In this document: piece by piece, positions 4,053-26,505 of the stretch | Layout: the number at the start of each line of letters is the position of its first letter | Numbering within the stretch: position 1 is the first letter of the stretch | DNA from: a phage | Length of the DNA: 41,801 nt | Sequence record: PZ179881.1 | Strand: one strand, 5' to 3' | Translations under genes and position numbers: made by a program | The notes under the pieces: generated by a model | Database searches by the model: none | Seen by the model: only the letters and a program-made list of their open reading frames with translations | What the model was told of the DNA's origin: nothing

Positions 4053-4149
4053 TATGCGAGACGGTAGCGACCCGGCGCGGAACCCGTACTTCCCCCATAG
4101 GGCACCCGGCGGAACCATCGGAGTGACCATCTGGCCATCTGGACGGCTA

Positions 4150-4190
4150 AACGGGGAGCCTGCCGGATAACCGGGGAGCGAACCGGGGAG
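4150..4190 (+). repeat. Three direct copies of AACsGGGGAG
   Basis: AACGGGGAG (4150-4158), AACCGGGGAG (4169-4178), AACCGGGGAG (4181-4190); flanked by further CCGGGT / GGGTTA-rich repeats to about 4460. Confidence 0.5.
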
Positions 4191-4503
4191 AACCTCGCTT
4201 TAACCTGTGGGTTAGCCGGGTTGCCCTGTGCTTTACTCTGTGCGGTATCCTGTGCGTTAACCGGGTTGTACTCACCACGTCCCGCAGGTTTATCAGAGTC
4301 GCCACGGGTTAGACTCAAGGGTTATCGGTTGGTGAGTTTAGCAGTTACATCACCGGGTAACGAGGGTATCGGGTTAACAGTGGCTATAGTAACAGGGTTA
4401 GCCGGGAGTGTCAACCGGGTTTATTCATTGGGTTACTCATTGGTTTAAATCCGGGTAGACAGGCGGCCTATCTGTATCTTCTGCCATTACCCAGAGAGTA
4501 AAT

Positions 4504-4527
4504 CTGAATTGGCACCCCTATAGTAAC
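4504..4527 (+). promoter_or_regulatory. Phage RNAP promoter (CTGAATTGGCACCCCTATAGTAAC) in terminal/leader region
   Basis: One of four near-identical + strand copies of yTGAwTTGGCACyCCTATAG; resembles the SP6/K11 class of single-subunit RNAP promoters (xxCACTATAG core); predicted +1 at the final G (4523). Confidence 0.65.
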
Positions 4528-4565
4528 AGAACGGTCGAATGCGGCTTGTGTATCTGTTACGGCGG

Positions 4566-4770
4566 TAACCCGGAGGGAAGGGAGGGAGGAGAGAGACACG
4601 GGAGAGAGTAACCCAGAGAGGAGACTACCCGGAGAGACTACCCAGAGCATAGCCCAGAGGTTAGCACCCAGAGAGTAACCCAGAGGAGAGCAACCCGGAT
4701 AAGCTAACCCGGTTAACAGACACGGAGAGCAAGCCAGAGAGTAACCCGGCATAGCATAACCCGGAGAGCT
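4566..4770 (+). repeat. Array of about 13 short purine-rich direct repeats (CCCrGAGAG-type units, period about 12-13 bp)
   Basis: Visible tandem units such as ACCCAGAGAG, CCCGGAGAG, CCCAGAGGAGAG, often followed by TAA or CTA; starts about 40 nt downstream of the phage promoter at 4504. Confidence 0.6.
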
Positions 4771-4805
4771 ACCGCCTATAGTAAACCCGGCTAACCCTGG
4801 TTAAC

Positions 4806-4817
4806 CTGCACTCGCAA
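4806..4817 (+). repeat. Recurring hairpin motif copy 1 (CTGCACTCGCAA)
   Basis: Core GCACTCGCA, potential TGC-ACTC-GCA stem-loop; intergenic, ~30 nt upstream of the sigma70-like promoter. Confidence 0.5.
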
Positions 4818-4848
4818 AGGGTATCTGTAAATAATTTCTAAAAGAGTG

Positions 4849-4878
4849 TTGACACGGGCTAATCAGTATTGCTATAGT
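4849..4878 (+). promoter_or_regulatory. Sigma70-type host promoter candidate (early)
   Basis: TTGACA (4849-4854), 18-bp spacer, TGcTATAGT extended -10 (4870-4878); AT-rich stretch upstream (4826-4846). Confidence 0.5.
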
Positions 4879-4988
4879 TCACATCGTCGAAGGGCAACAC
4901 GGAAACGGATAGCCCAGAGATACCCGGTCAAGCGGGTTAAGTAGACAGCCTGCTCAGTCATACGAACAACAGGCACTTGACAAGATGT

Positions 4989-5029
4989 GATGTAACGTAG
5001 TACCTTAGTAACCGATGTAACGCAGTACC
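4989..5029 (+). repeat. 16-bp direct repeat pair GATGTAACGyAGTACC
   Basis: Copies at 4989-5004 and 5014-5029 differ at one position; between a TTGACA box (4977-4982) and the first early ORF; candidate protein-binding site. Confidence 0.45.
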
Positions 5030-5088
5030 GCTCTTTAACAATCCGGGTAATCTATCAAGTGATGCCGTCTAACAATGAGGGTAACACG

Positions 5089-5400
5089 ATGGAATTAAAG
5101 AAACAGTTGACACGCTATAAACGCAGTGCTAACGTAGAAAAGCTCCACCAGACGCTAAGCGCTGAGGCGATGCAGAAGGATGGGCAAGCGGCACGACGCC
5201 GCAAGAAACAGCTAAGCGAGCGGCTTTACATTCCGCAAGTTATAAGCTCTAATGACTTCTCCGATAAGGGGAACATGCGCAAGACGGCAGCTAGGAGCAA
5301 TCAGGGCAACGTCCGCGCCATCGGCAATAAGACCGATGTTAAGATTAACAGCTATTGGTCAAGTAAACGCGGCGATAACATGCCGAAAGATAAAGGTTGA
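5089..5400 (+). CDS. Hypothetical early protein (very basic, low complexity)
   Basis: ATG at 5089 with GAGGG 7 nt upstream (track ORF 5059 begins at an upstream GTG); first ORF after the terminal promoter region; coding status less certain because composition looks atypical. Confidence 0.45.
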   Translation: MELKKQLTRYKRSANVEKLHQTLSAEAMQKDGQAARRRKKQLSERLYIPQVISSNDFSDKGNMRKTAARSNQGNVRAIGNKTDVKINSYWSSKRGDNMPKDKG

Positions 5401-14199: not shown

Positions 14200-16668
14200 A
14201 TGGCTATGAAATGCCTGATTCACGACTGTGAAACAGAAACTAACCCGTGGTATGGACAGGTGGCATCGCCGTACTGCCCGGATAACTACGTGGTTGAGGA
14301 CGCCTGGGAGACGGTAACCCTGGGCGGTGAGGTGGAGATTAGCCCGCGTACCGACCGCCGCTACAACTCGCTTGAGGAGTGGAAGGGCAACTGGTCTGTG
14401 GACTTCTCCGGGATTGATATCTACGTGGCCCACAATGCTGCGTATGAAATGAGCTGGTTACTGGAGCACGACTATGATAACTTCATGGCGTTTCTCAAAC
14501 GTGGTGGTCGTGTTTATTGTACCGCTTACGCTCACTATCTACTCAGCAACATGCAGGACACTTACCCCGCGCTTAACGACGTTGCACCAATCTACGGCGG
14601 TACGCCAAAGGTGGATGCAGTCAAGGCACTATGGGAAGCTGGCGTTAAAACGTCGGATATTGACCCGGCGCTACTTCGGGAGTATCTGTTCGGGCCTAAC
14701 GGCGATATCGCCAACACCACCAAAGTTTTCCTGGGAACGTGGTCGGAGCTTGTTAGACGTAACATGTTGAAGATGGCGCTGGTGCGCATGGATGGCCTGC
14801 TGTTCTCTGCCATCTGTATGCACCACGGCTTGAAGGTTGACATGGAGGTAGCGGAGCGTGACCGCAGCCGTAACGAGCGGTTGCTGGAAGGCCTGCACTC
14901 GCAGGTGATTCAGTATCTGCCAGCGGATATGCCCGCCGAAGCCCGTGCGCAGTTCACCGGGACACGCTTCCAGTTGTCGGCGTTCATCTTCGGTGGCGCT
15001 ATGAAGTACACGGCGCGAGTACCGCGTGAGGATGCCGACGGCAATCCCATCTACGTGAAGAAGGAAGGGCCGTACTTCAAGAGCATCAAAGGAGCGCTGC
15101 CAGAGAGCGCCTGCATGTTCGACGAGGAGGCAGGTGGCCTTTGGTATTCCCCGGAGCTGAAAGAGCACCAGGCGCGTTACACGGCAGGTAAGAACAAAGG
15201 CCTGCCGAAGTTCGATAAGTATGTGACCGACGAGGTTGATACGAAGAACGGCGACCTGCTGTATCACTTCCCCGGCCTGCTGTCTGAGGAGGTGCAGGAG
15301 AAGCTGAGCCTGGCGATTGAGGGTGAGTGGTCTGGTAGCCAGAAGCTGCAAGACGGCAGCCCGGTAATCAGCACCAGTGGTGACGTGTTGGATGTGCTGG
15401 CGGCGCACGACGTGCCAGTAGCTAAGTTGTTGAAAGATATCGGGAAGATTGATAAAGACCTCGGTGCATTCTACATCAAGCGCACGTTCAACAAAGATGG
15501 CAGCTTGAAGAAAGAAGGCGGCATGTTGCAGTACGTGCAGCCGGACGGCTTCATTCACCACACGCTGAACCACACGAGCACCGTGACGGCGCGACTCAGC
15601 TCGAACAAGCCGAACCTCCAGCAGTTACCACGAGCGGAGGAAGCGCGGGACGAGAACGAGTTCAAGTCCACGGTTAAGGAAATGTTCGTGAGTCGCTTCG
15701 GTGACGACGGCGGCATCCTCCAGGAGGACTACAGCGCACTGGAGACGGTTGGTTTGCAGGTGTTGACCCGCGACGTTAACCTCAAGGCTGCGCTGCTCAA
15801 AGGCCTGGACATGCACTCTATGCGCCTCGCGGCGATGGAGAACCAGACCTATGAGTACGTGGTGGCGCGTACCAAAGACGACACGCACCCTGAACACGCT
15901 GAGTGGGACGTGAAGCGTACAGGCGTTAAGCCAGTTGCATTCCAGTATCAGTATGGTGCGACGGCTTACGGCATGGCGATGAGCACTGGTAAATCCCAGG
16001 ACTTCTGCCAGGCGTTCATTGACGCGGAGAAGAAGGCGTTCCCCGGCGTTGAGGACTGGTACGACAACACGGTGTACCCGACGGTGGAAGCGACGGCAGC
16101 GCAGAACAAGCCTATCCGTGTGCAGCTCGACGACGGGCGTTACGTTATGTTCGGCTGGGGTACGTTCACTACCCACGACGGCACGACGTATCAGTTCCGC
16201 CAGCAGAGCAAGCAGCGTTGGAATCCGGTGACTAAGAAGCGTGAGGAAGTCAAGGAGTTCACGGTGCCGCAGATGCGTAACTACCCGATTCAGGGCGCAT
16301 CCGGTTTCTTCGTGCAGCTCGCTTGCGGTATGCTGATTCGTCACTTCATCGCCAACGACTTCTACGGTGGCAAGTGCCTGCCGATTAACACGGTTCACGA
16401 TGCGTGTTACTTCGACACTCACAAAGACGTAGTGTACCAGGCAGCGTATGAGGTGGAGGCCATCATGGAATCCATCCCGGAAATGCTGAATGCACTGTGG
16501 CCTGCGTATCAGTGTGAGGTGCCGTTCCCGGTGGCAGGTGGCTTCGGTAAGAACATGGCCGAGGAGCACCACGTTTACGACAAGGATAGCAAAGACCTGT
16601 TCAAACAGCAGAAAGCGAACTTCAAGAAAGAGTTCCTTGCTAAGAAGGGTATCGCGGTTCAATTCTGA
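14200..16668 (+). CDS. DNA polymerase (family A, with 3'-5' exonuclease domain)
   Basis: 822 aa; exo-like HDCETETNPWYG near N-terminus; pol I-type motifs (SSNKPNLQQLPR, NYPIQGASG, VHDACYFD). Confidence 0.9.
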   Translation: MAMKCLIHDCETETNPWYGQVASPYCPDNYVVEDAWETVTLGGEVEISPRTDRRYNSLEEWKGNWSVDFSGIDIYVAHNAAYEMSWLLEHDYDNFMAFLKRGGRVYCTAYAHYLLSNMQDTYPALNDVAPIYGGTPKVDAVKALWEAGVKTSDIDPALLREYLFGPNGDIANTTKVFLGTWSELVRRNMLKMALVRMDGLLFSAICMHHGLKVDMEVAERDRSRNERLLEGLHSQVIQYLPADMPAEARAQFTGTRFQLSAFIFGGAMKYTARVPREDADGNPIYVKKEGPYFKSIKGALPESACMFDEEAGGLWYSPELKEHQARYTAGKNKGLPKFDKYVTDEVDTKNGDLLYHFPGLLSEEVQEKLSLAIEGEWSGSQKLQDGSPVISTSGDVLDVLAAHDVPVAKLLKDIGKIDKDLGAFYIKRTFNKDGSLKKEGGMLQYVQPDGFIHHTLNHTSTVTARLSSNKPNLQQLPRAEEARDENEFKSTVKEMFVSRFGDDGGILQEDYSALETVGLQVLTRDVNLKAALLKGLDMHSMRLAAMENQTYEYVVARTKDDTHPEHAEWDVKRTGVKPVAFQYQYGATAYGMAMSTGKSQDFCQAFIDAEKKAFPGVEDWYDNTVYPTVEATAAQNKPIRVQLDDGRYVMFGWGTFTTHDGTTYQFRQQSKQRWNPVTKKREEVKEFTVPQMRNYPIQGASGFFVQLACGMLIRHFIANDFYGGKCLPINTVHDACYFDTHKDVVYQAAYEVEAIMESIPEMLNALWPAYQCEVPFPVAGGFGKNMAEEHHVYDKDSKDLFKQQKANFKKEFLAKKGIAVQF
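14892..14905 (+). repeat. Recurring hairpin motif copy 6 (CCTGCACTCGCAGG)
   Basis: Perfect 5-bp stem CCTGC/GCAGG with ACTC loop, inside the DNA polymerase gene. Confidence 0.45.
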
Positions 16669-16684
16669 ATTGACACCCCTATAC
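16665..16684 (+). promoter_or_regulatory. Degenerate promoter-like element (CTGAATTGACACCCCTATAC)
   Basis: Two mismatches to consensus, including the predicted +1 (G to C); overlaps the DNAP stop; followed by CCCAGAGTAACC, which matches the terminal-region repeat unit. Confidence 0.25.
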
Positions 16685-20434: not shown

Positions 20435-20762
20435 GCGTAAGTGGCGGCAGTTCTTCTATGAAGACGGGACACCCAGGCGGTGTCCTCACTGCATATCGCC
20501 TGACCTGAAAGAGATTGTACGCGACTCGATTGACGTGGGTGTCGGCGGTGGCGGCATCCCATGCGAGATAGAGACTCGCTGCAATAAGTGCAACTCCATG
20601 CTGGGCTATTGGGCCTACGGGAGTTATGACCCTTGTTTCCTCATGGAGTTCGTAGGTTATGACGATGAAGCTAGTGATTGTGGAAAGCCCGTATGCGGGT
20701 GCGGTACAGCAGAATGTCCACTATGCCCGGCTGTGCCTGGCGGACTGTCTGAAACGTGGTGA
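20421..20762 (+). CDS. Possible Cys-rich zinc-ribbon protein (TTG start)
   Basis: Track ORF begins at TTG 20421, 8 nt after GAGGAGGG; protein contains CPHC...CNKC and CGKPVCGCGTAECPLC clusters; 3' third overlaps the next gene by ~100 nt. Confidence 0.35.
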   Translation: MARNKRKWRQFFYEDGTPRRCPHCISPDLKEIVRDSIDVGVGGGGIPCEIETRCNKCNSMLGYWAYGSYDPCFLMEFVGYDDEASDCGKPVCGCGTAECPLCPAVPGGLSETW

Positions 20763-20988
20763 GGCACCGATTGCCAGCCATCTGTTATACACGCAGCCCA
20801 ACGTGCTCAACGACGATATCCCGGAAGAACGTGCTCTGGGTATTGCCGCAGGGTTAGCGTGGCGCAGCGTGGCGGAGAAGGCCATATTCTACGTTGACCG
20901 TGGCTGGTCTTCCGGCATGACGGCGGCACTTGAGCTGTACGACCGTGAAGGCTTCCCATATGAATTTCGTAAACTGGAGGGTTACTAA
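20659..20988 (+). CDS. Hypothetical protein (possible Rossmann-like nucleoside deoxyribosyltransferase-like fold)
   Basis: 109 aa; N-terminal MKLVIVESPYAG resembles the beta-strand/P-loop start of NDT-like phage proteins; weak, from memory only. Confidence 0.5.
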   Translation: MTMKLVIVESPYAGAVQQNVHYARLCLADCLKRGEAPIASHLLYTQPNVLNDDIPEERALGIAAGLAWRSVAEKAIFYVDRGWSSGMTAALELYDREGFPYEFRKLEGY

Positions 20989-21296
20989 TGAGCGCAGTTG
21001 GTACTGGATTGAAGTTTGACGGCGATAAGCCACGTATGGATTTACTGCTGGACGGTTGCCCGCTGGCGCTGCTGCGTATCAGCGACGTGCTAACCTTCGG
21101 CGCGAAGAAGTATGAAGCGCATAGCTGGCACACGGTAGCCGAGGGCAAGACGCGCTACAAGGCGGCGCTGCTGCGGCACCTGACGGCTCACGCCCAGGGC
21201 GAAGTGAATGACCCGGAGAGTGGCCTGCCGCACCTGGCACATGCCGCTTGTTGCTCACTGTTTATCCTGGAGCTGGAACAACGTGACTCCGAGTAG
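20988..21296 (+). CDS. DUF5664-like protein (putative dATP/dGTP pyrophosphohydrolase-type domain)
   Basis: 102 aa; N-terminal KFDGDKPRMDLLL...LLRISDVLTFGAKKYEAHSWH matches my recollection of the K-x-D-x-x-K-P-R-x-D-L-L / VLxFGAxKY signature; GGAGGG upstream. Confidence 0.5.
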   Translation: MSAVGTGLKFDGDKPRMDLLLDGCPLALLRISDVLTFGAKKYEAHSWHTVAEGKTRYKAALLRHLTAHAQGEVNDPESGLPHLAHAACCSLFILELEQRDSE

Positions 21297-21377
21297 CTGG
21301 TGCTTTAGACAATGGGTGTCCACGGGTAACGTGGACTACCTGCAATTATATCATGAGTGGAAGGGCAGAGGATACTG

Positions 21378-23828
21378 ATGGCAACACTGGAACAACAGTT
21401 GGAGTGGGAGCGTAAGCACCGTGAGCTAGGCCAGGCTAAGATGGCTGCGCAGCTACAGGCTGCAAAGGAAGACGGACGCATAACCGATACTCCCCTGGGT
21501 TCCGTTGTGCTTCGCCGTTACCTGCTCTGGCTGTCTCGTAAGATAGCGAAGGACGTAACCACTGACCTGGACGAGCCGGGGCGCAGCAAGGCGTATAGCC
21601 CTCTGCTGTTCTCCCTGGACATGGACGCGGTGGCACTGCTGGCAATCTCTGAGGCGTTGAAGCTGTGTGTGGCTGGCCCGGTGCAGGCGACTACCCTGGG
21701 CTTCGCCATCGGCAAGGTGCTGTATGGTGAGCTTGCTCTCGCAGCATTCCGCGACATGAACGCGAATCTGTATGAGGTGCTGACCGAAGACCTCCAGCGC
21801 AAGATGAGTAAAGACCTGCGCCACCGCATGACTATCTTCCGTATGCAGGCCCAGAAGAACGGCATTGAGCTGCCGGAGTGGACGCCGACGCAGAAGCTCC
21901 AGGTGGGTATGTACGTCATGGGCCTCATGAGTACGCCGAACGAAGACGGTGAGGTACTGCTGGAGAACACGCTCAAGAGCTACGGCAAGAAGACCAAGTA
22001 CATGGTTGACCTCGCGCCGGAAATCCACAAGCTCATGCAGGGTATTGAGGGCAGCATCATCGGTCGTTCCGGGTTCGCGGCACCGTGTCTGATTCCTCCG
22101 CAGGACTGGACGGGTGAAGAAGGTGTCGGCGGGTTCCACGGCGACCTCAAGATTCGCGCTGTACGTTTCTTCAAAGGTTCTACCTATCAATGGGAGGTTA
22201 TGAATAGCGAGGGCCATAATCCAGAGGTCACCCTGGCTATGCTCAACGCTCACCAGAAGGTAGCTTGGAAGGTAAATCCTTTCATTCTCGACTTATTGAA
22301 AGGTATGCGCTATCACGGATACGGTATCCGTAAGAAGGTCGAGTTCAGCAGCGCACACGAGAAGATTAAACCTGAGCGCCTGGAGTGGCTCGACACGGTT
22401 AAGGAAGGAGACTTCACAGATGTGCAGCAGTACAACTTCGAGACGTGGAAGCGGAAGATGCGCGACTGGCACACTGAGGCCAAACGCATTGGTCGTGTTG
22501 AACTGCGGTGCAACATGGCGATTAGTGCGGCTCAGGAAGTCAGCACGTTAGACCGATTTTACTATGTATATCAAGTAGATAACCGTGGTCGCATGTATCC
22601 GGTATCCGGGCTGCTTAACCCGCAGGGCAGTGACGTGCAGAAGGCGTTGCTCCACGCAGCGGACGGCGAGCCGATTGATACGCCGGAGGCACTCTGGTGG
22701 TTCAAGATGGGTATCGCCAGCAAGTTCGGCATAGATAAACTGGCCCCGGAAGACTGCGTTAAATGGGTGGACGACAACCATGCAAACATCATCCGGGCCG
22801 CTGACGACCCACTTGACCGAGACGCTTTTAACTGGTGGACTGGCGCTGATAAACCCTTGCAATTCATCGCCTTGTGTGATGAGTATCGCAGATATCACGA
22901 GTCACCAACCACCTTCGTCTCCCGCATCGCCGTCGCAATGGACGGAACCTGTAACGGCCTCCAGAACTATTCCGCCATGCTGCGAGATAGCGTGGGTGGA
23001 CGAGCTACAAACCTCATTAGCGCAGATAATGGCATACCTAACGATATCTATGGAGACGTCGCCAAAGCGTCATTTAAGCGACTTGGCAGAATGGAGGCGT
23101 CAAATCTGCGAACCGATTGGGTCAACTACGGCTTCGACCGTAGCCTTACTAAGAAGTCTGTAATGACCCAGGTGTACGGCTCCACCTTCGGTACTTGCCG
23201 AAAGTCAATCATTGAATACTGCTACGATAAACAAATCTTCGAAGGCTCGGAGTATGACCACGCTGATTATGCAGCGCGTCTGGTCTGGGACGGCATCGGG
23301 GATGTGGTTGTCAAGGCGAAGGAAGCGATGGACTGGCTGCGCAAGAGCGCCGGGGCGGTGATGAAGGAGGGTGCTGAGTACATTACCTGGCTGGCACCGA
23401 CCGGGTTCCGAGTCGTGCAGGTTTACAACAAGCACAAGACCATGCAGGTTCGTGCGCATATCGGCAAGAACGTGCGGCTGCGCGTACCTGACCCGGAGAA
23501 CATCGACGGGCCGGACAAGATGCGCCACCGTAACGCACTGCCGCCGAACTTCATTCACAGCATCGACAGTAGCCACATGGCGTTCGTATCGGTGCGCCTG
23601 GCGGCAGAGCTAGACGGGATGTTCATGCACTTCATCCACGACGACTTCGGGGTGCTGCCGAAACATGCGGCGCTGCTCTCGCGGGTAATTCGTGAGGAGT
23701 TCGTGAAGATGCACGAGAACTACAGCCTGGAGGACTTCAAGGCCGGGTATGAGTTCCTTGATGAGCCACCTGCAAAGGGTGACTTAGATATTAACTGTGT
23801 ATTAACCAGTGTTAACTTCTTTAGGTAA
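21378..23828 (+). CDS. Single-subunit DNA-dependent RNA polymerase (T7-like)
   Basis: 816 aa from ATG 21378 (AGAGGA upstream; track ORF starts at GTG 21357); conserved blocks MDGTCNGLQNYSAMLRDSVGGRATNL, PPNFIHSIDSSHM and FMHFIHDDFG align with T7 RNAP motifs. Confidence 0.9.
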   Translation: MATLEQQLEWERKHRELGQAKMAAQLQAAKEDGRITDTPLGSVVLRRYLLWLSRKIAKDVTTDLDEPGRSKAYSPLLFSLDMDAVALLAISEALKLCVAGPVQATTLGFAIGKVLYGELALAAFRDMNANLYEVLTEDLQRKMSKDLRHRMTIFRMQAQKNGIELPEWTPTQKLQVGMYVMGLMSTPNEDGEVLLENTLKSYGKKTKYMVDLAPEIHKLMQGIEGSIIGRSGFAAPCLIPPQDWTGEEGVGGFHGDLKIRAVRFFKGSTYQWEVMNSEGHNPEVTLAMLNAHQKVAWKVNPFILDLLKGMRYHGYGIRKKVEFSSAHEKIKPERLEWLDTVKEGDFTDVQQYNFETWKRKMRDWHTEAKRIGRVELRCNMAISAAQEVSTLDRFYYVYQVDNRGRMYPVSGLLNPQGSDVQKALLHAADGEPIDTPEALWWFKMGIASKFGIDKLAPEDCVKWVDDNHANIIRAADDPLDRDAFNWWTGADKPLQFIALCDEYRRYHESPTTFVSRIAVAMDGTCNGLQNYSAMLRDSVGGRATNLISADNGIPNDIYGDVAKASFKRLGRMEASNLRTDWVNYGFDRSLTKKSVMTQVYGSTFGTCRKSIIEYCYDKQIFEGSEYDHADYAARLVWDGIGDVVVKAKEAMDWLRKSAGAVMKEGAEYITWLAPTGFRVVQVYNKHKTMQVRAHIGKNVRLRVPDPENIDGPDKMRHRNALPPNFIHSIDSSHMAFVSVRLAAELDGMFMHFIHDDFGVLPKHAALLSRVIREEFVKMHENYSLEDFKAGYEFLDEPPAKGDLDINCVLTSVNFFR

Positions 23829-23854
23829 TAACAGTAAGATAACCTGGGTTAACC

Positions 23855-23874
23855 CTATAGCGGTGCCAATTCAG
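23855..23874 (-). promoter_or_regulatory. Inverted promoter-like copy (minus strand reads CTGAATTGGCACCGCTATAG then GGTTAACC)
   Basis: Reverse complement of + strand 23855-23874 matches the promoter consensus with one mismatch; points leftwards into the 3' end of the RNAP gene; back-to-back with the + strand promoter at 23911. Confidence 0.45.
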
Positions 23875-23910
23875 CGAAAGCTATCAGTTAACAGTGATTG
23901 ATAGGTGAAC

Positions 23911-23934
23911 CTGATTTGGCACTCCTATAGCAAC
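23911..23934 (+). promoter_or_regulatory. Phage RNAP promoter upstream of the structural module
   Basis: CTGATTTGGCACTCCTATAGCAAC, two mismatches to the other copies; followed by AACTAAACGG and a small ORF with a good SD. Confidence 0.65.
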
Positions 23935-23949
23935 TAAACGGAGATAAAC

Positions 23950-24129
23950 ATGGCTGAACAGAAGCAAGAAGTCCAAGTAATCGCCCGGCTGTCACCTGCT
24001 GCCTACTTGCAGTTGGAGAAAGCGTTGCCATCCGCAGCCGTACCCAAAGACGGTACAGCAGCGGCTTACCACCTCGGCATCCAGTACGTGCTAAGCGTCC
24101 TGCGTAATGGGTTTGTTAGCAATGCGTGA
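23950..24129 (+). CDS. Small hypothetical protein (59 aa)
   Basis: Not in ORF track; ATG 23950 with GGAG 7 nt upstream, ~20 nt downstream of a phage promoter start; strand-helix-helix-like pattern is only a guess. Confidence 0.4.
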   Translation: MAEQKQEVQVIARLSPAAYLQLEKALPSAAVPKDGTAAAYHLGIQYVLSVLRNGFVSNA

Positions 24130-24550
24130 GTTCGTTATCCGGCGACGGAAGGACGAGCCACCGTTCAACAAGCAAGCGGCAGAGGAACTAATCGAAGATA
24201 ACTGGTGGGCTGACCACGACCGACTGCAACCCGCGTTCGGTACGTCATTCCACTACGAGTGCGCTGTGTACAGCTTCCTGGCTGCGCAGCGGGTAGAAGG
24301 TTATCTTTGGGACGACGCAGGCCATATCATCGGCTGCGCTGTCTACGTTCGCCTGTACGATATCCATCACGGCTTGATAGCTTCCCCCATCACGGTGATA
24401 GTTAAGACTGAACACCGTGGAGACTTGAAAGTGACACGGAGGATGCAGAGGTTGATACGGCGGGTGGCTTCGGAAACCGGGGCTTCCCGGTTCTACCAGG
24501 TCACCCATGTGAACGATAAGGTTCAAATCCACAAACTGAGGAAAGTATAA
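24107..24550 (+). CDS. Hypothetical protein
   Basis: 147-aa ORF; start uncertain (ATG 24107 or 24122), overlaps the preceding small ORF. Confidence 0.55.
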   Translation: MGLLAMREFVIRRRKDEPPFNKQAAEELIEDNWWADHDRLQPAFGTSFHYECAVYSFLAAQRVEGYLWDDAGHIIGCAVYVRLYDIHHGLIASPITVIVKTEHRGDLKVTRRMQRLIRRVASETGASRFYQVTHVNDKVQIHKLRKV

Positions 24551-24969
24551 TGGGTGCAGTCAAGAAGGTATTCAAAGGCGCAGCTAAGGTAGTCAGTAAG
24601 GGTATCGGTGCAATCACTGGTTCCAATGCGGCTAAGAAGGCTGCTGAGCAGCAGGCTCAACAGATGAAGAACCAGACCAAGCAGATGCAGGAGCAGGCTA
24701 AGCAGGAGAGCATGACGGCGCTGCGCAATATCCAGGACACTGGTGCTCAGGTGTCGGCACAGCAGTCAATGCAGGAGTCGGCCCTGGAGCGTGACAAGGC
24801 GCGAGACGCGGCTGAGGAGAAACGTCGTAAAGCCCAGGAGGGCAGCGGTGAGTCTCTGGATGTTGCTATCGGCGGCACGGGCCAGGAGAGCGACGAGGAG
24901 AACATCCGACGCAACAACGTCCGTAACAGCTTCTTCTCTGGTGGCGGTTCAAGCGGCCTGCGTCTGTAA
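24550..24969 (+). CDS. Hypothetical protein, probably virion-associated
   Basis: 139 aa, Gln/Ala/Lys-rich, GAGGA upstream; sits immediately before the portal gene, a slot that holds small virion proteins in T7-group genomes. Confidence 0.5.
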   Translation: MGAVKKVFKGAAKVVSKGIGAITGSNAAKKAAEQQAQQMKNQTKQMQEQAKQESMTALRNIQDTGAQVSAQQSMQESALERDKARDAAEEKRRKAQEGSGESLDVAIGGTGQESDEENIRRNNVRNSFFSGGGSSGLRL

Positions 24970-24984
24970 TCAACGGGAGGTAAG

Positions 24985-26505
24985 ATGCGCACTAACGAAA
25001 CGGCTCAAAGCCGCTGGCAGAAACTGGACGCTAAGCGCCAGGGTATGCTGACGCGGTGTGAGCGGTACGCCGCTCTTACCTTACCCAGCGTGTGTCCCGA
25101 AGACAGTTACGACGAGGGTACTGACGAGTTAAGTCAGTCCCTCAACTCTATCGGCGCACAGGCGGTCAACAGCTTGACGAACAAGATGATGCTGGCAATG
25201 TTCGCACCATCCCGACCGTTCATGAAGTTTGACCTCCCGGTGGGTGAGAAGAATAAAATCCTCAAGGCGCTGGGCCTGGACGACGCGGCGTTCCGTGAGG
25301 AAATGGCAGTAGCCGAGAAGGAGGCAATTCGCTTCCTGGACAGCACGGGCAGTCGGCCTAAGCTGTATGACCTGTTCAACCACTTAATCATCACGGGTAA
25401 CGCTCTCAAGCTCAACGAGAACGACACCATGCGAATCATCGGCATCAAGGACTTCGTTAGCCGCCGAAACGTGCAGGGTCGTGTGATTGAGATTATCTTC
25501 CGCGAATGCGTGGACGTGGACGAGCTGCCGGAAGACCTCCAGCAATTCGCCTACACGTTGAAGCACACGGACGATAAGCAGGTGCATTACTACCGCTGGT
25601 GGGTGTGGGACGGCAAGAAGTACATTGAGCGTCAGTATCTGGACGATACGCACATCACCCTGCCGAAGTACAACGGGCAGTACAAGCCGGAGGACATGCC
25701 TGCACAGCACCATGTGTGGCGCATCGCTGACAAGCGTAATTACGGCATTGGCCACGTTGAGGACTACATCGGTGACTTCGAAGGGCTTGACCAGCTCACT
25801 GAGGCTGAGGTCAACGGCGCTATCCTGGCGTCTGAGTTCCGCTGGCTGGCCAACCCCGGCGGCATGACCCGACCGGAAGACATTCAGCGCTCCCGCAACG
25901 GTGACGTTGTGCCTGGCCAGGATGGTGACCTGTCACTGATTAACGCCGGGCAGGTAGCTGGTGCATTGCAGGTTGTGTCGGCATCCGCTGACAAGTACAT
26001 CCGCCGCATCGGGCAGGGCTTCCTGCTAACCTCCGCAGTACAGCGCGACGCTGAGCGTGTCACCGCTGAGGAGATTCGACTGCTGGCGAATGAGCTGGAG
26101 ACTGGCCTGGGTGGTATCTACTCCCGCCTGGCGATTGACCTCCAGCTACCGATTGCGCACTGGCTGATGAAGAACGTCGATAACGGCATCTTCAAGGGCA
26201 GCGACTTCCAGCCTGTTATCGTGACTGGCCTGGATGCGCTATCCCGTAACGGCGACCTGGAGAACATGCAGTTGTTCCTGGGTGACGTGGCGCAAATCAC
26301 CTCAATGCCGCCAGAGGTACAGCAGTATCTCAAACTGGACACCATCTTCTCTGCACTTGCAGCAGGTCGCGGACTTCGTTCCTCCGACTTCATCAACAAA
26401 CAGAGTGAGGTTGACCAGCGAAACGCTGAGGCGCAAGCCCAGATGCAACAGCAACAACTCGAAGCAGCAGGTGTTGACGCTGCGCTCAAGAAACAAGCTA
26501 AGTAA
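24985..26505 (+). CDS. Portal (head-tail connector) protein
   Basis: 506 aa; GGGAGG upstream; first large gene of the structural module, followed by scaffold and capsid. Confidence 0.8.
   Translation: MRTNETAQSRWQKLDAKRQGMLTRCERYAALTLPSVCPEDSYDEGTDELSQSLNSIGAQAVNSLTNKMMLAMFAPSRPFMKFDLPVGEKNKILKALGLDDAAFREEMAVAEKEAIRFLDSTGSRPKLYDLFNHLIITGNALKLNENDTMRIIGIKDFVSRRNVQGRVIEIIFRECVDVDELPEDLQQFAYTLKHTDDKQVHYYRWWVWDGKKYIERQYLDDTHITLPKYNGQYKPEDMPAQHHVWRIADKRNYGIGHVEDYIGDFEGLDQLTEAEVNGAILASEFRWLANPGGMTRPEDIQRSRNGDVVPGQDGDLSLINAGQVAGALQVVSASADKYIRRIGQGFLLTSAVQRDAERVTAEEIRLLANELETGLGGIYSRLAIDLQLPIAHWLMKNVDNGIFKGSDFQPVIVTGLDALSRNGDLENMQLFLGDVAQITSMPPEVQQYLKLDTIFSALAAGRGLRSSDFINKQSEVDQRNAEAQAQMQQQQLEAAGVDAALKKQAK

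Follow-up and report, generated by a model that had tools for sequence, protein, structure and literature searches.

The phage sequence record PZ179881.1, a stretch of 41.8 kb analysed here as a whole (hereafter the window), is a complete or near-complete genome of a Cronosvirus (Autographiviridae, Melnykvirinae), and our subject is the short spacer that follows its gene for a single-subunit phage RNA polymerase (RNAP), together with the two promoter copies that this spacer holds (Table 1). The gene layout is of the phiKMV-like type: the RNAP gene closes the DNA-metabolism block, and three small genes and then the portal gene lie downstream of it. The RNAP gene region shares 97% nucleotide identity with its counterpart in GAP227, and the region around the promoter pair is 97% identical to the Cronobacter phages GAP227, GY3 and EspYZU05 as well as to Kosakonia phage Kc318. 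Within the spacer, a leftward promoter copy that faces the RNAP gene (P_A; CTGAATTGGCACCGCTATAGGG on the minus strand of 23853-23874) stands back to back with a rightward copy (P_B; CTGATTTGGCACTCCTATAGCAAC on the plus strand of 23911-23934), the latter followed by a conserved leader (AACTAAACGGAG), a GGAG and the ATG of the next gene at 23950. The presumed transcription start of P_A (23855) lies 27 nt beyond the last base of the RNAP stop codon, and that of P_B (23930) another 75 nt past that of P_A. An earlier sequence-only reading of this DNA had described P_A as one half of a back-to-back pair, one mismatch away from the consensus, with a GGG start, 27 nt after the RNAP stop, and each of these particulars is borne out by the sequence.

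Table 1. Features at the end of the RNAP gene, promoter copies in the window, and loci of a recurring motif in relatives. Positions without a prefix are those of the window; a '.' marks features given without a strand.
Feature	Position	Strand	Details
Single-subunit phage RNA polymerase gene	21357..23828	+	823 amino acids; GTG start; TAA stop at 23826-23828; Pfam RNA_pol, E=1.7e-89
AT-rich element	23780..23852	.	Adjoins P_A downstream in the direction of P_A transcription; spans RNAP C-terminal codons and stop
Dyad TAACCAGTGTTAAC	23803..23816	.	Within RNAP C-terminal codons
Dyad TAACCTGGGTTAAC	23840..23853	.	Inside the first 16 transcribed nt of P_A; same dyad as in the 26-nt unit of contig L037
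P_A, leftward phage-RNAP promoter copy, CTGAATTGGCACCGCTATA/GGG	23853..23874	-	Presumed +1 G at 23855; one mismatch to consensus, at -6
Apical part of palindrome, between the promoters	23881..23904	.	CTATCAGTTA / TGATTGATAG; 10-bp stem, 4-nt loop
P_B, rightward late promoter, CTGATTTGGCACTCCTATA/GCAAC	23911..23934	+	Presumed +1 G at 23930; two mismatches to consensus
First gene after RNAP gene	23950..24129	+	59 amino acids; GAP227_30 homologue; GGAG at 23940-23943; ATG at 23950
Promoter 19-mer copies, rightward	4505, 16666 (2 mismatches), 23912 (2 mismatches), 27363, 38665	+	
Promoter 19-mer copy, leftward	23855-23873 (1 mismatch)	-	
Motif GGGAGTGAGC / GCGAACGG..AGTGAGC in relatives	L025:5126-5150, L024:5118-5145, L014/L031, L023, L015:5484-5500		L023 on the other strand

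The promoter 19-mer TGAATTGGCACCCCTATAG has six matches in the window when up to three mismatches are allowed, compared with 0.01 expected from shuffled sequence, which rules out P_A as a chance match. P_A is the sole copy on the minus strand, agrees with the consensus at 18 of 19 positions (and is thus nearer to it than P_B), and is unchanged in GAP227, GY3, EspYZU05 and Kc318; the other copies in the window are found upstream of late-gene blocks. The RNAP of Cronobacter phage Dev-CD-23823, which is 81% identical in amino acid sequence to that of the window, initiates in vitro from AATGTATACCCCTATATACAC (PMC12272871), and the inverted copy in the Dev-CD-23823 genome matches this minimal promoter at 19 of 21 positions. 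We regard P_A as a genuine promoter for the phage's own single-subunit RNAP, and P_B as an ordinary first late promoter. A hidden minus-strand gene served by P_A was considered and rejected: the only antisense open reading frames lie inside the RNAP gene, and relatives in which the promoter points the other way (see below) exclude a conserved one.

To place this arrangement in context, we examined the corresponding spacer of 20 relatives (17 isolate phages and the uncultivated contigs L010, L012 and L037), which span Cronosvirus, Pokrovskaiavirus, Wanjuvirus, Aerosvirus, Ahphunavirus, Pienvirus, Aghbyvirus and unclassified lineages. The sequence-only reading had named an inverted copy absent or degenerate in all relatives as grounds for giving up its idea; all 20, however, carry a second promoter copy after the RNAP stop, ahead of the first late promoter. 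Over about 12 lineages, this extra copy covaries with the other promoters of the same phage, irrespective of whether it is inverted or direct, and so follows phage-specific cores as different as GGCACC.CTATA, GTGCACCCCTA, TATACCCCTATA, TCTACCCATATA, GTACGCCT.A, GTACGCCTAA, GTACACCATGA, CGACCCTATTA and TTACACTCT. In Yersinia phage phi80-18 (L022), the inverted copy at 21185-21203 (-) is identical at 19 of 19 positions to promoters P1 and P3 of that phage. The genome paper of phi80-18 gives only four phage promoters (PMC7316996); this fifth copy falls outside those four and is unannotated in the GenBank record. A metagenome survey yielded just two more close relatives (L037, L038), and a look past the RNAP stop at 19 distant marine loci (RNAPs of 25-36% identity) gave no repeated promoter pair that was convincing, so that the feature could not be extended beyond Melnykvirinae.

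Since P_A and P_B form the arms of an imperfect palindrome in the window, we asked whether P_A compensates for deviations in P_B, using five lineages that have independent, distant promoter copies. P_A was as close as, or closer than, P_B to these distant copies in four of the five, and the differences between P_A and P_B were mostly the sum of their separate deviations (3 versus 1+2; 2 versus 0+2; 5 versus 3+2; 4 versus 1+3). The arms differ at 2-5 of 18 positions, each following the genome consensus independently, and no shared or compensating changes between them were found in the five lineages. Aeromonas phage Ahp1 (L027) illustrates this: its P_A equals the capsid promoter at 17 of 18 positions, its P_B differs from that promoter at four. 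Because P_A matches the distant copies without compensating P_B, it has been kept by selection as a promoter that the polymerase can recognize and not as the arm of a hairpin.

The orientation of P_A varies among the relatives. It is inverted, firing into the RNAP gene, in the GAP227 group, EspYZU13 and L010, Dev-CD-23823, phi80-18 and fHe-Yen3-01, PP2, MA13, the Aerosvirus phages and Ahp1, and it is direct, touching or overlapping the RNAP stop codon, in L012, L037, phiR8-01, ISAO8, Kaonashi, Atoyac23 and the Klebsiella phage vB-Kvc-Y10 (Y10). A neighbour-joining tree of the RNAPs (without bootstrap) puts the direct L012 within the otherwise inverted Cronosvirus group and has a second, separate clade of the direct type, from which we infer at least two flips. 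What flips is the whole cassette of promoter and downstream DNA, not the promoter alone: the 69 nt downstream of the direct P_A of L012 match the 42 nt that follow the inverted P_A of GAP227, taken in reverse complement, with an alignment score of 45.5 (shuffles, 17.2±3.6, with 0 of 2000 reaching the observed score; same-strand alignment, 24.5), the aligned blocks being GGG.TTA.CCCAGG...CTTACTGTT...TTAATATAGGT. An assembly artefact is an unlikely source of the direct orientation in L012, as its cassette differs in both sequence and length from the inverted homologues; that explanation is weakened further by the direct orientation of the L037 contig and of five isolates (all those listed above other than the two contigs), and by RNAP C-terminal codon usage that shifts in the expected direction.

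Directly downstream of P_A, in its own direction of transcription, lies the most AT-rich DNA of the genome. The top-ranking AT-rich scan windows of 60, 80 and 100 nt all start at 23780-23783 (73% AT versus a genome mean of 44%; 99.99th percentile). The genome-wide AT maximum of phi80-18 (83% AT) likewise falls directly downstream of its P_A, and in the 11 other relatives tested the top AT-rich window within the fetched locus adjoins P_A on the downstream side. This AT-rich side switches with the promoter, lying to the left of P_A where it is inverted and between P_A and P_B where it is direct. Where an inverted P_A lies 24-44 nt from the stop, the AT-rich element enters the RNAP codons, and the GC content at third codon positions (GC3) of the last 16 codons drops to 0.19-0.38, compared with 0.50-0.69 gene-wide; in the window itself, where the last ~16 codons of the RNAP gene are part of the element, the values are 0.38 and 0.69. 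The direct L012 encodes the same CVLTSVNFFR peptide with a GC3 of 0.56 over its last 16 codons, and inverted phages with long spacers (phiAS7, Ahp1) have a lesser shift or none (0.69 versus 0.69 gene-wide; 0.56 versus 0.76). AT-richness over the RNAP codons is thus kept through synonymous choice, and the AT-codon bias in these last ~16 codons is a clear example of a non-coding signal constraining coding sequence.

The AT-rich element is also rich in repeats. TTAAC occurs there eight times in 130 nt (0.33 expected), and the element contains two copies of a dyad, TAACC-N3-GTTAAC, one of them in the RNAP codons and the other at the start of the P_A transcript (Table 1). Across the window, the dyad TAACCNNNGTTAAC has six matches at four sites with at most one mismatch, again compared with 0.33 expected. 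The most elaborate version was found in contig L037 (UZAT01155769.1; L037:2251-2477), in which a 26-nt unit, ATAGATAACCCGGTTAACTAATATAT, is repeated in 4.7 tandem copies between a direct P_A that overlaps the RNAP stop and P_B. This array is iteron-like and is built on the same GATAACC..GTTAAC dyad that opens the P_A transcript of the window.

We propose that P_A and its AT-rich, dyad-bearing leader form an orientation-independent cassette, the counterpart in Melnykvirinae of a T7-type transcription-primed replication origin, and judging from sequence comparison we put the probability of this at roughly 0.5. Among the readings considered it fits best because, as at the known T7 origins, the extra promoter has the AT maximum of the genome right on its downstream side, and that maximum turns with it; as in such origins, a phage-RNAP promoter is followed by an AT-rich region, and the two are located in the spacer after the RNAP gene. 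Accumulated RNAP would initiate leftward at 23855 with GGG, and the transcript would enter the easily melted DNA of 23780-23852 and make a persistent RNA:DNA hybrid there, which could serve as primer, or could let a primer load, for the phage DNA polymerase and helicase-primase. In inverted lineages, antisense RNA over the RNAP 3' end and a hairpin in read-through RNA would then be by-products, whether used or not. An origin primed by divergent transcription had been among the suggestions of the sequence-only reading. Its transcription-primed origin is the part that we retain; the divergence is not required, because the unit of the cassette is one promoter with its AT-rich leader. A more ambitious version, in which the cassette would be the principal origin of Melnykvirinae in either orientation, inverted lineages would have co-opted antisense firing through the RNAP gene to couple the onset of replication to polymerase shut-off, and the dyads would bind a phage protein, seems to us improbable; T7-type origins are without such a dyad-binding protein.

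In T7, phiOL and phiOR are classically termed replication promoters, and the primary origin includes an AT-rich stretch after phi1.1B. The AT scan that we applied to the window places the top 60-nt windows of T7 just downstream of phiOL (414), phi1.1B (5932), phi6.5 (18573) and phiOR (39245). Of these, phi1.1B, together with phi1.1A, makes up the primary origins, and phi6.5 and phiOR count as secondary ones (PMC8373140, citing Rabkin & Richardson 1988). The likeness of the window to the T7 primary origin extends to its geometry: both have two phage-RNAP promoters in the spacer after the RNAP gene, beginning 26 nt (T7) and 27 nt (window) past the stop and set 75 nt apart (phi1.1A-phi1.1B; P_A-P_B), in both, DNA that ranks among the most AT-rich of the genome comes directly after a promoter, and both AT-rich regions are full of TTAA-type motifs. 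There are also clear differences. Both T7 promoters are directed to the right, with the AT-rich DNA placed after the second, whereas here it is placed after the first promoter, which in most lineages points leftward into the RNAP gene; the RNAP gene of the window is in mid-genome with structural genes next to it; dyads and iteron-like repeats such as those of L037 are missing from T7; and origin function in T7 is proven, whereas the cassette is a candidate known from sequence.

Several points weigh against an origin at this site. In the literature searched we came across no study that maps a replication origin in phiKMV-like or Melnykvirinae phages. Nor is the cassette shared by every phage whose RNAP gene lies mid-genome, as LUZ19 (Krylovirinae) carries two promoters past this gene but no AT-rich element. 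Other causes can make the DNA between genes AT-rich, and GC skew has no inflection at 23.8 kb, although this measure is uninformative in unidirectionally transcribed phages. At the corresponding spot in Ahp1 a sigma70 promoter has been predicted (Ahp1 genome paper). A direct-type P_A could simply be an additional late promoter, and the 27-nt and 75-nt spacings shared with T7 may be coincidence. In two independent genomes of the EspYZU13 lineage, moreover (L002:2070-2090 and, in contig L010, L010:5513-5533), the inverted P_A keeps its -17..-5 binding half (AATGTGCACCCC) but has its TATA altered by a 1-nt deletion (CCCCTAAGTAC). Such a copy may bind the polymerase without efficient initiation, and weak initiation may suit an RNAP-binding or structural role better than priming.

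The explanation favoured by the sequence-only reading was negative autoregulation, in which P_A fires into the RNAP gene and antisense RNA or head-on transcription cuts late RNAP expression. A near-consensus promoter with a GGG start does face the RNAP 3' end, and this inverted orientation has been retained in at least six genera or lineages. Terminator-like sites on the minus strand of 20500-25000 do not exceed shuffle expectation, so the transcripts would probably span the RNAP gene. The nearest minus-strand ATCTGTT, resembling a T7 class II terminator, is 4.5 kb from P_A, and the first 156 nt of the leftward RNA are unremarkable in structure (z = -1.3). A mapped antisense phage-specific promoter in LUZ19, conserved across Phikmvvirus, offers a precedent, though at the left genome end. 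However, the seven direct-type relatives carry the homologous promoter in the sense orientation, two of them (L012, L037) inside or next to the Cronosvirus clade, and antisense control therefore is not the conserved function. It also leaves the co-oriented AT-rich element and the synonymous AT codons unexplained, and the TATA is damaged in EspYZU13 and L010; on balance we consider antisense regulation an unlikely purpose of the element.

The inverted pair might instead act through the fold that it gives to RNA transcribed out of the RNAP gene, as a terminator or roadblock, as an RNase III site like R1.1 of T7, or as a 3' stabilizer of RNAP mRNA; a hairpin terminator or processing site was also raised by the sequence-only reading. 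P_A and P_B indeed lie within a 76-nt imperfect palindrome (23855-23930) whose two 32-nt arms are 75% complementary and which reaches past the promoters into the apical 10-bp stem. The spacer RNA (23829-23949, 121 nt) is predicted to fold at -38.6 kcal/mol (z = -5.0; 0 of 200 shuffles fold as well) into an irregular stem of about 30 bp. R1.1 lies between phi1.1A and phi1.1B in T7, and EspYZU13 and L010 retain the stem-forming part of P_A while losing its TATA. Yet direct-type relatives are without such a hairpin, the arms do not covary in a compensatory manner, and no U-tract follows the stem, CAACUAAACGG being found in its place, all of which indicates that the hairpin is not the conserved function. 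An intrinsic terminator, or one of the T7 T-phi class I type, was specifically rejected, as the stem has no U-run, was not called in the terminator scan and is missing from direct-type relatives. Hairpin roles can only be secondary and lineage-specific, and as the main explanation we find them very doubtful. Still another possibility is that P_A is an RNAP-binding site or a by-product, the relic of a local promoter duplication and inversion that serves at most as a polymerase sink or as an insulator between replication and structural genes and plays no part in replication. Relatives often have promoters clustered around the RNAP 3' end (the weak/strong pair of KP34, whose authors read the weak copy as a relic, and P007/P008 of LUZ19), EspYZU13 and L010 keep only the binding half, and Klebsiella Y10 has an extra, partial inverted copy. 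Against this stands near-perfect conservation over phages whose RNAPs are just 58-65% identical, with P_A often nearer to the consensus than P_B, and the tight tie to the AT maximum of the genome via synonymous codons speaks for selection beyond binding. This explanation, too, strikes us as unlikely.

Phage promoters at or after the 3' end of a mid-genome RNAP gene have been mapped in LUZ19 (P007/P008, by ONT-cappable-seq) and KP34 (a strong/weak pair, by 5'-RACE and in vitro), and the direct-type Melnykvirinae phages phiR8-01, ISAO8 and L037 resemble this arrangement. In LUZ19 and KP34, unlike in the window, both copies are co-directional, the promoter sequences are unrelated to those described here, and no inverted version has been described; the LUZ19 pair, furthermore, has no AT-rich maximum. 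A parallel for a backward-pointing copy is P001 of LUZ19, which serves the RNAP of that phage from the non-coding strand of an otherwise one-strand genome, is experimentally active and conserved in Phikmvvirus, and for which a role in blocking read-around transcription has been proposed. It differs from P_A in that it lies at the left genome end, not beside the RNAP gene, and reads toward the terminus; there are also no reports of its being flipped in relatives. The priming mechanism itself has an analogue in mitochondria, where at LSP/OriH the T7-like RNAP POLRMT uses a dedicated promoter and a transcript that is G-rich near its start gives a stable hybrid from which DNA synthesis is primed. 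That system belongs to a eukaryotic organelle, relies on accessory factors and has a G-quadruplex (CSBII) instead of an AT-rich leader, so it serves as analogy only.

A few further observations concern promoters and repeats elsewhere in these genomes. In the window, the weaker promoter copy at 16666-16684 (+) (TGAATTGACACCCCTATAC) lacks a G at +1 and has downstream of it three GTAACC repeats as well as an AT-rich leader, the latter 4th genome-wide among 80-nt windows; the copy lies upstream of an ATG at about 16736 and could be a middle promoter or a secondary origin. The region 4100-5050 is non-coding over ~950 nt and filled with repeats, including many TAACCC(A/G)GAG and GGTTA(A/G)CC units, the dyad TAACCNNNGTTAAC at 4373 and 4792, promoter P1 at 4505-4523 and a sigma70-like TTGACA...TATAGT near 4840-4870. 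This is probably a collapsed terminal repeat together with the left-end region, in which case the window is circularly permuted relative to GAP227, and P1 with its nearby AT-rich DNA (about 4790-4880) may be likened to phiOL of T7. Between the two promoters of the spacer, the TGATAG of the apical stem resembles the upstream half of the EspYZU13-type promoter (CTGATAGTGCACC), and the stem may be a remnant of an older promoter copy.

Among the relatives, the single spacer of vB-Kvc-Y10 (L026, 5148-5290) contains three promoter-like copies, with the direct P_A overlapping the RNAP stop, a partial inverted copy near 5229(-) and P_B, and with a stretch of 85% AT between. The motif GGGAGTGAGC / GCGAACGG..AGTGAGC recurs directly past the RNAP stop in Pienvirus-like phages, is on the opposite strand in Aerosvirus and is present even in a 37%-identical outgroup. 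In Ahp1, the published TGCACTCGCAGAG-type promoters (PHIRE) differ from a motif, GAATCGGTACACCATGAG, that recurs before late genes and after the RNAP gene, and the published promoter map of this phage is probably wrong.

Parts of this arrangement are already known, namely an origin composed of a promoter and AT-rich DNA after the RNAP gene (T7) and promoter pairs at the RNAP 3' end (LUZ19, KP34). What appear to be new are the backward-pointing form, the way in which it has flipped as a unit during evolution, its reach into the RNAP codons and the iteron-like dyads: our literature search returned no paper describing an inverted copy or an origin in the Melnykvirinae group, and the accessible genome papers of relatives report only co-directional promoters, with no backward copy, flip, RNAP-codon intrusion or iteron-like dyads. 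There is practical interest as well, as CD23823-type RNAPs are under development for in vitro transcription, and members of this group that infect Cronobacter, Yersinia and Aeromonas serve in biocontrol, so that an origin and a backward-firing promoter would matter for engineering. For the biology of the subfamily, the finding offers a compact element of ~100 bp (promoter, AT maximum and dyad repeats), naturally flipped at least twice, as a concrete and readily testable candidate origin; rather than a categorically new mechanism, the cassette is a solid candidate for the unmapped replication origin of Melnykvirinae.

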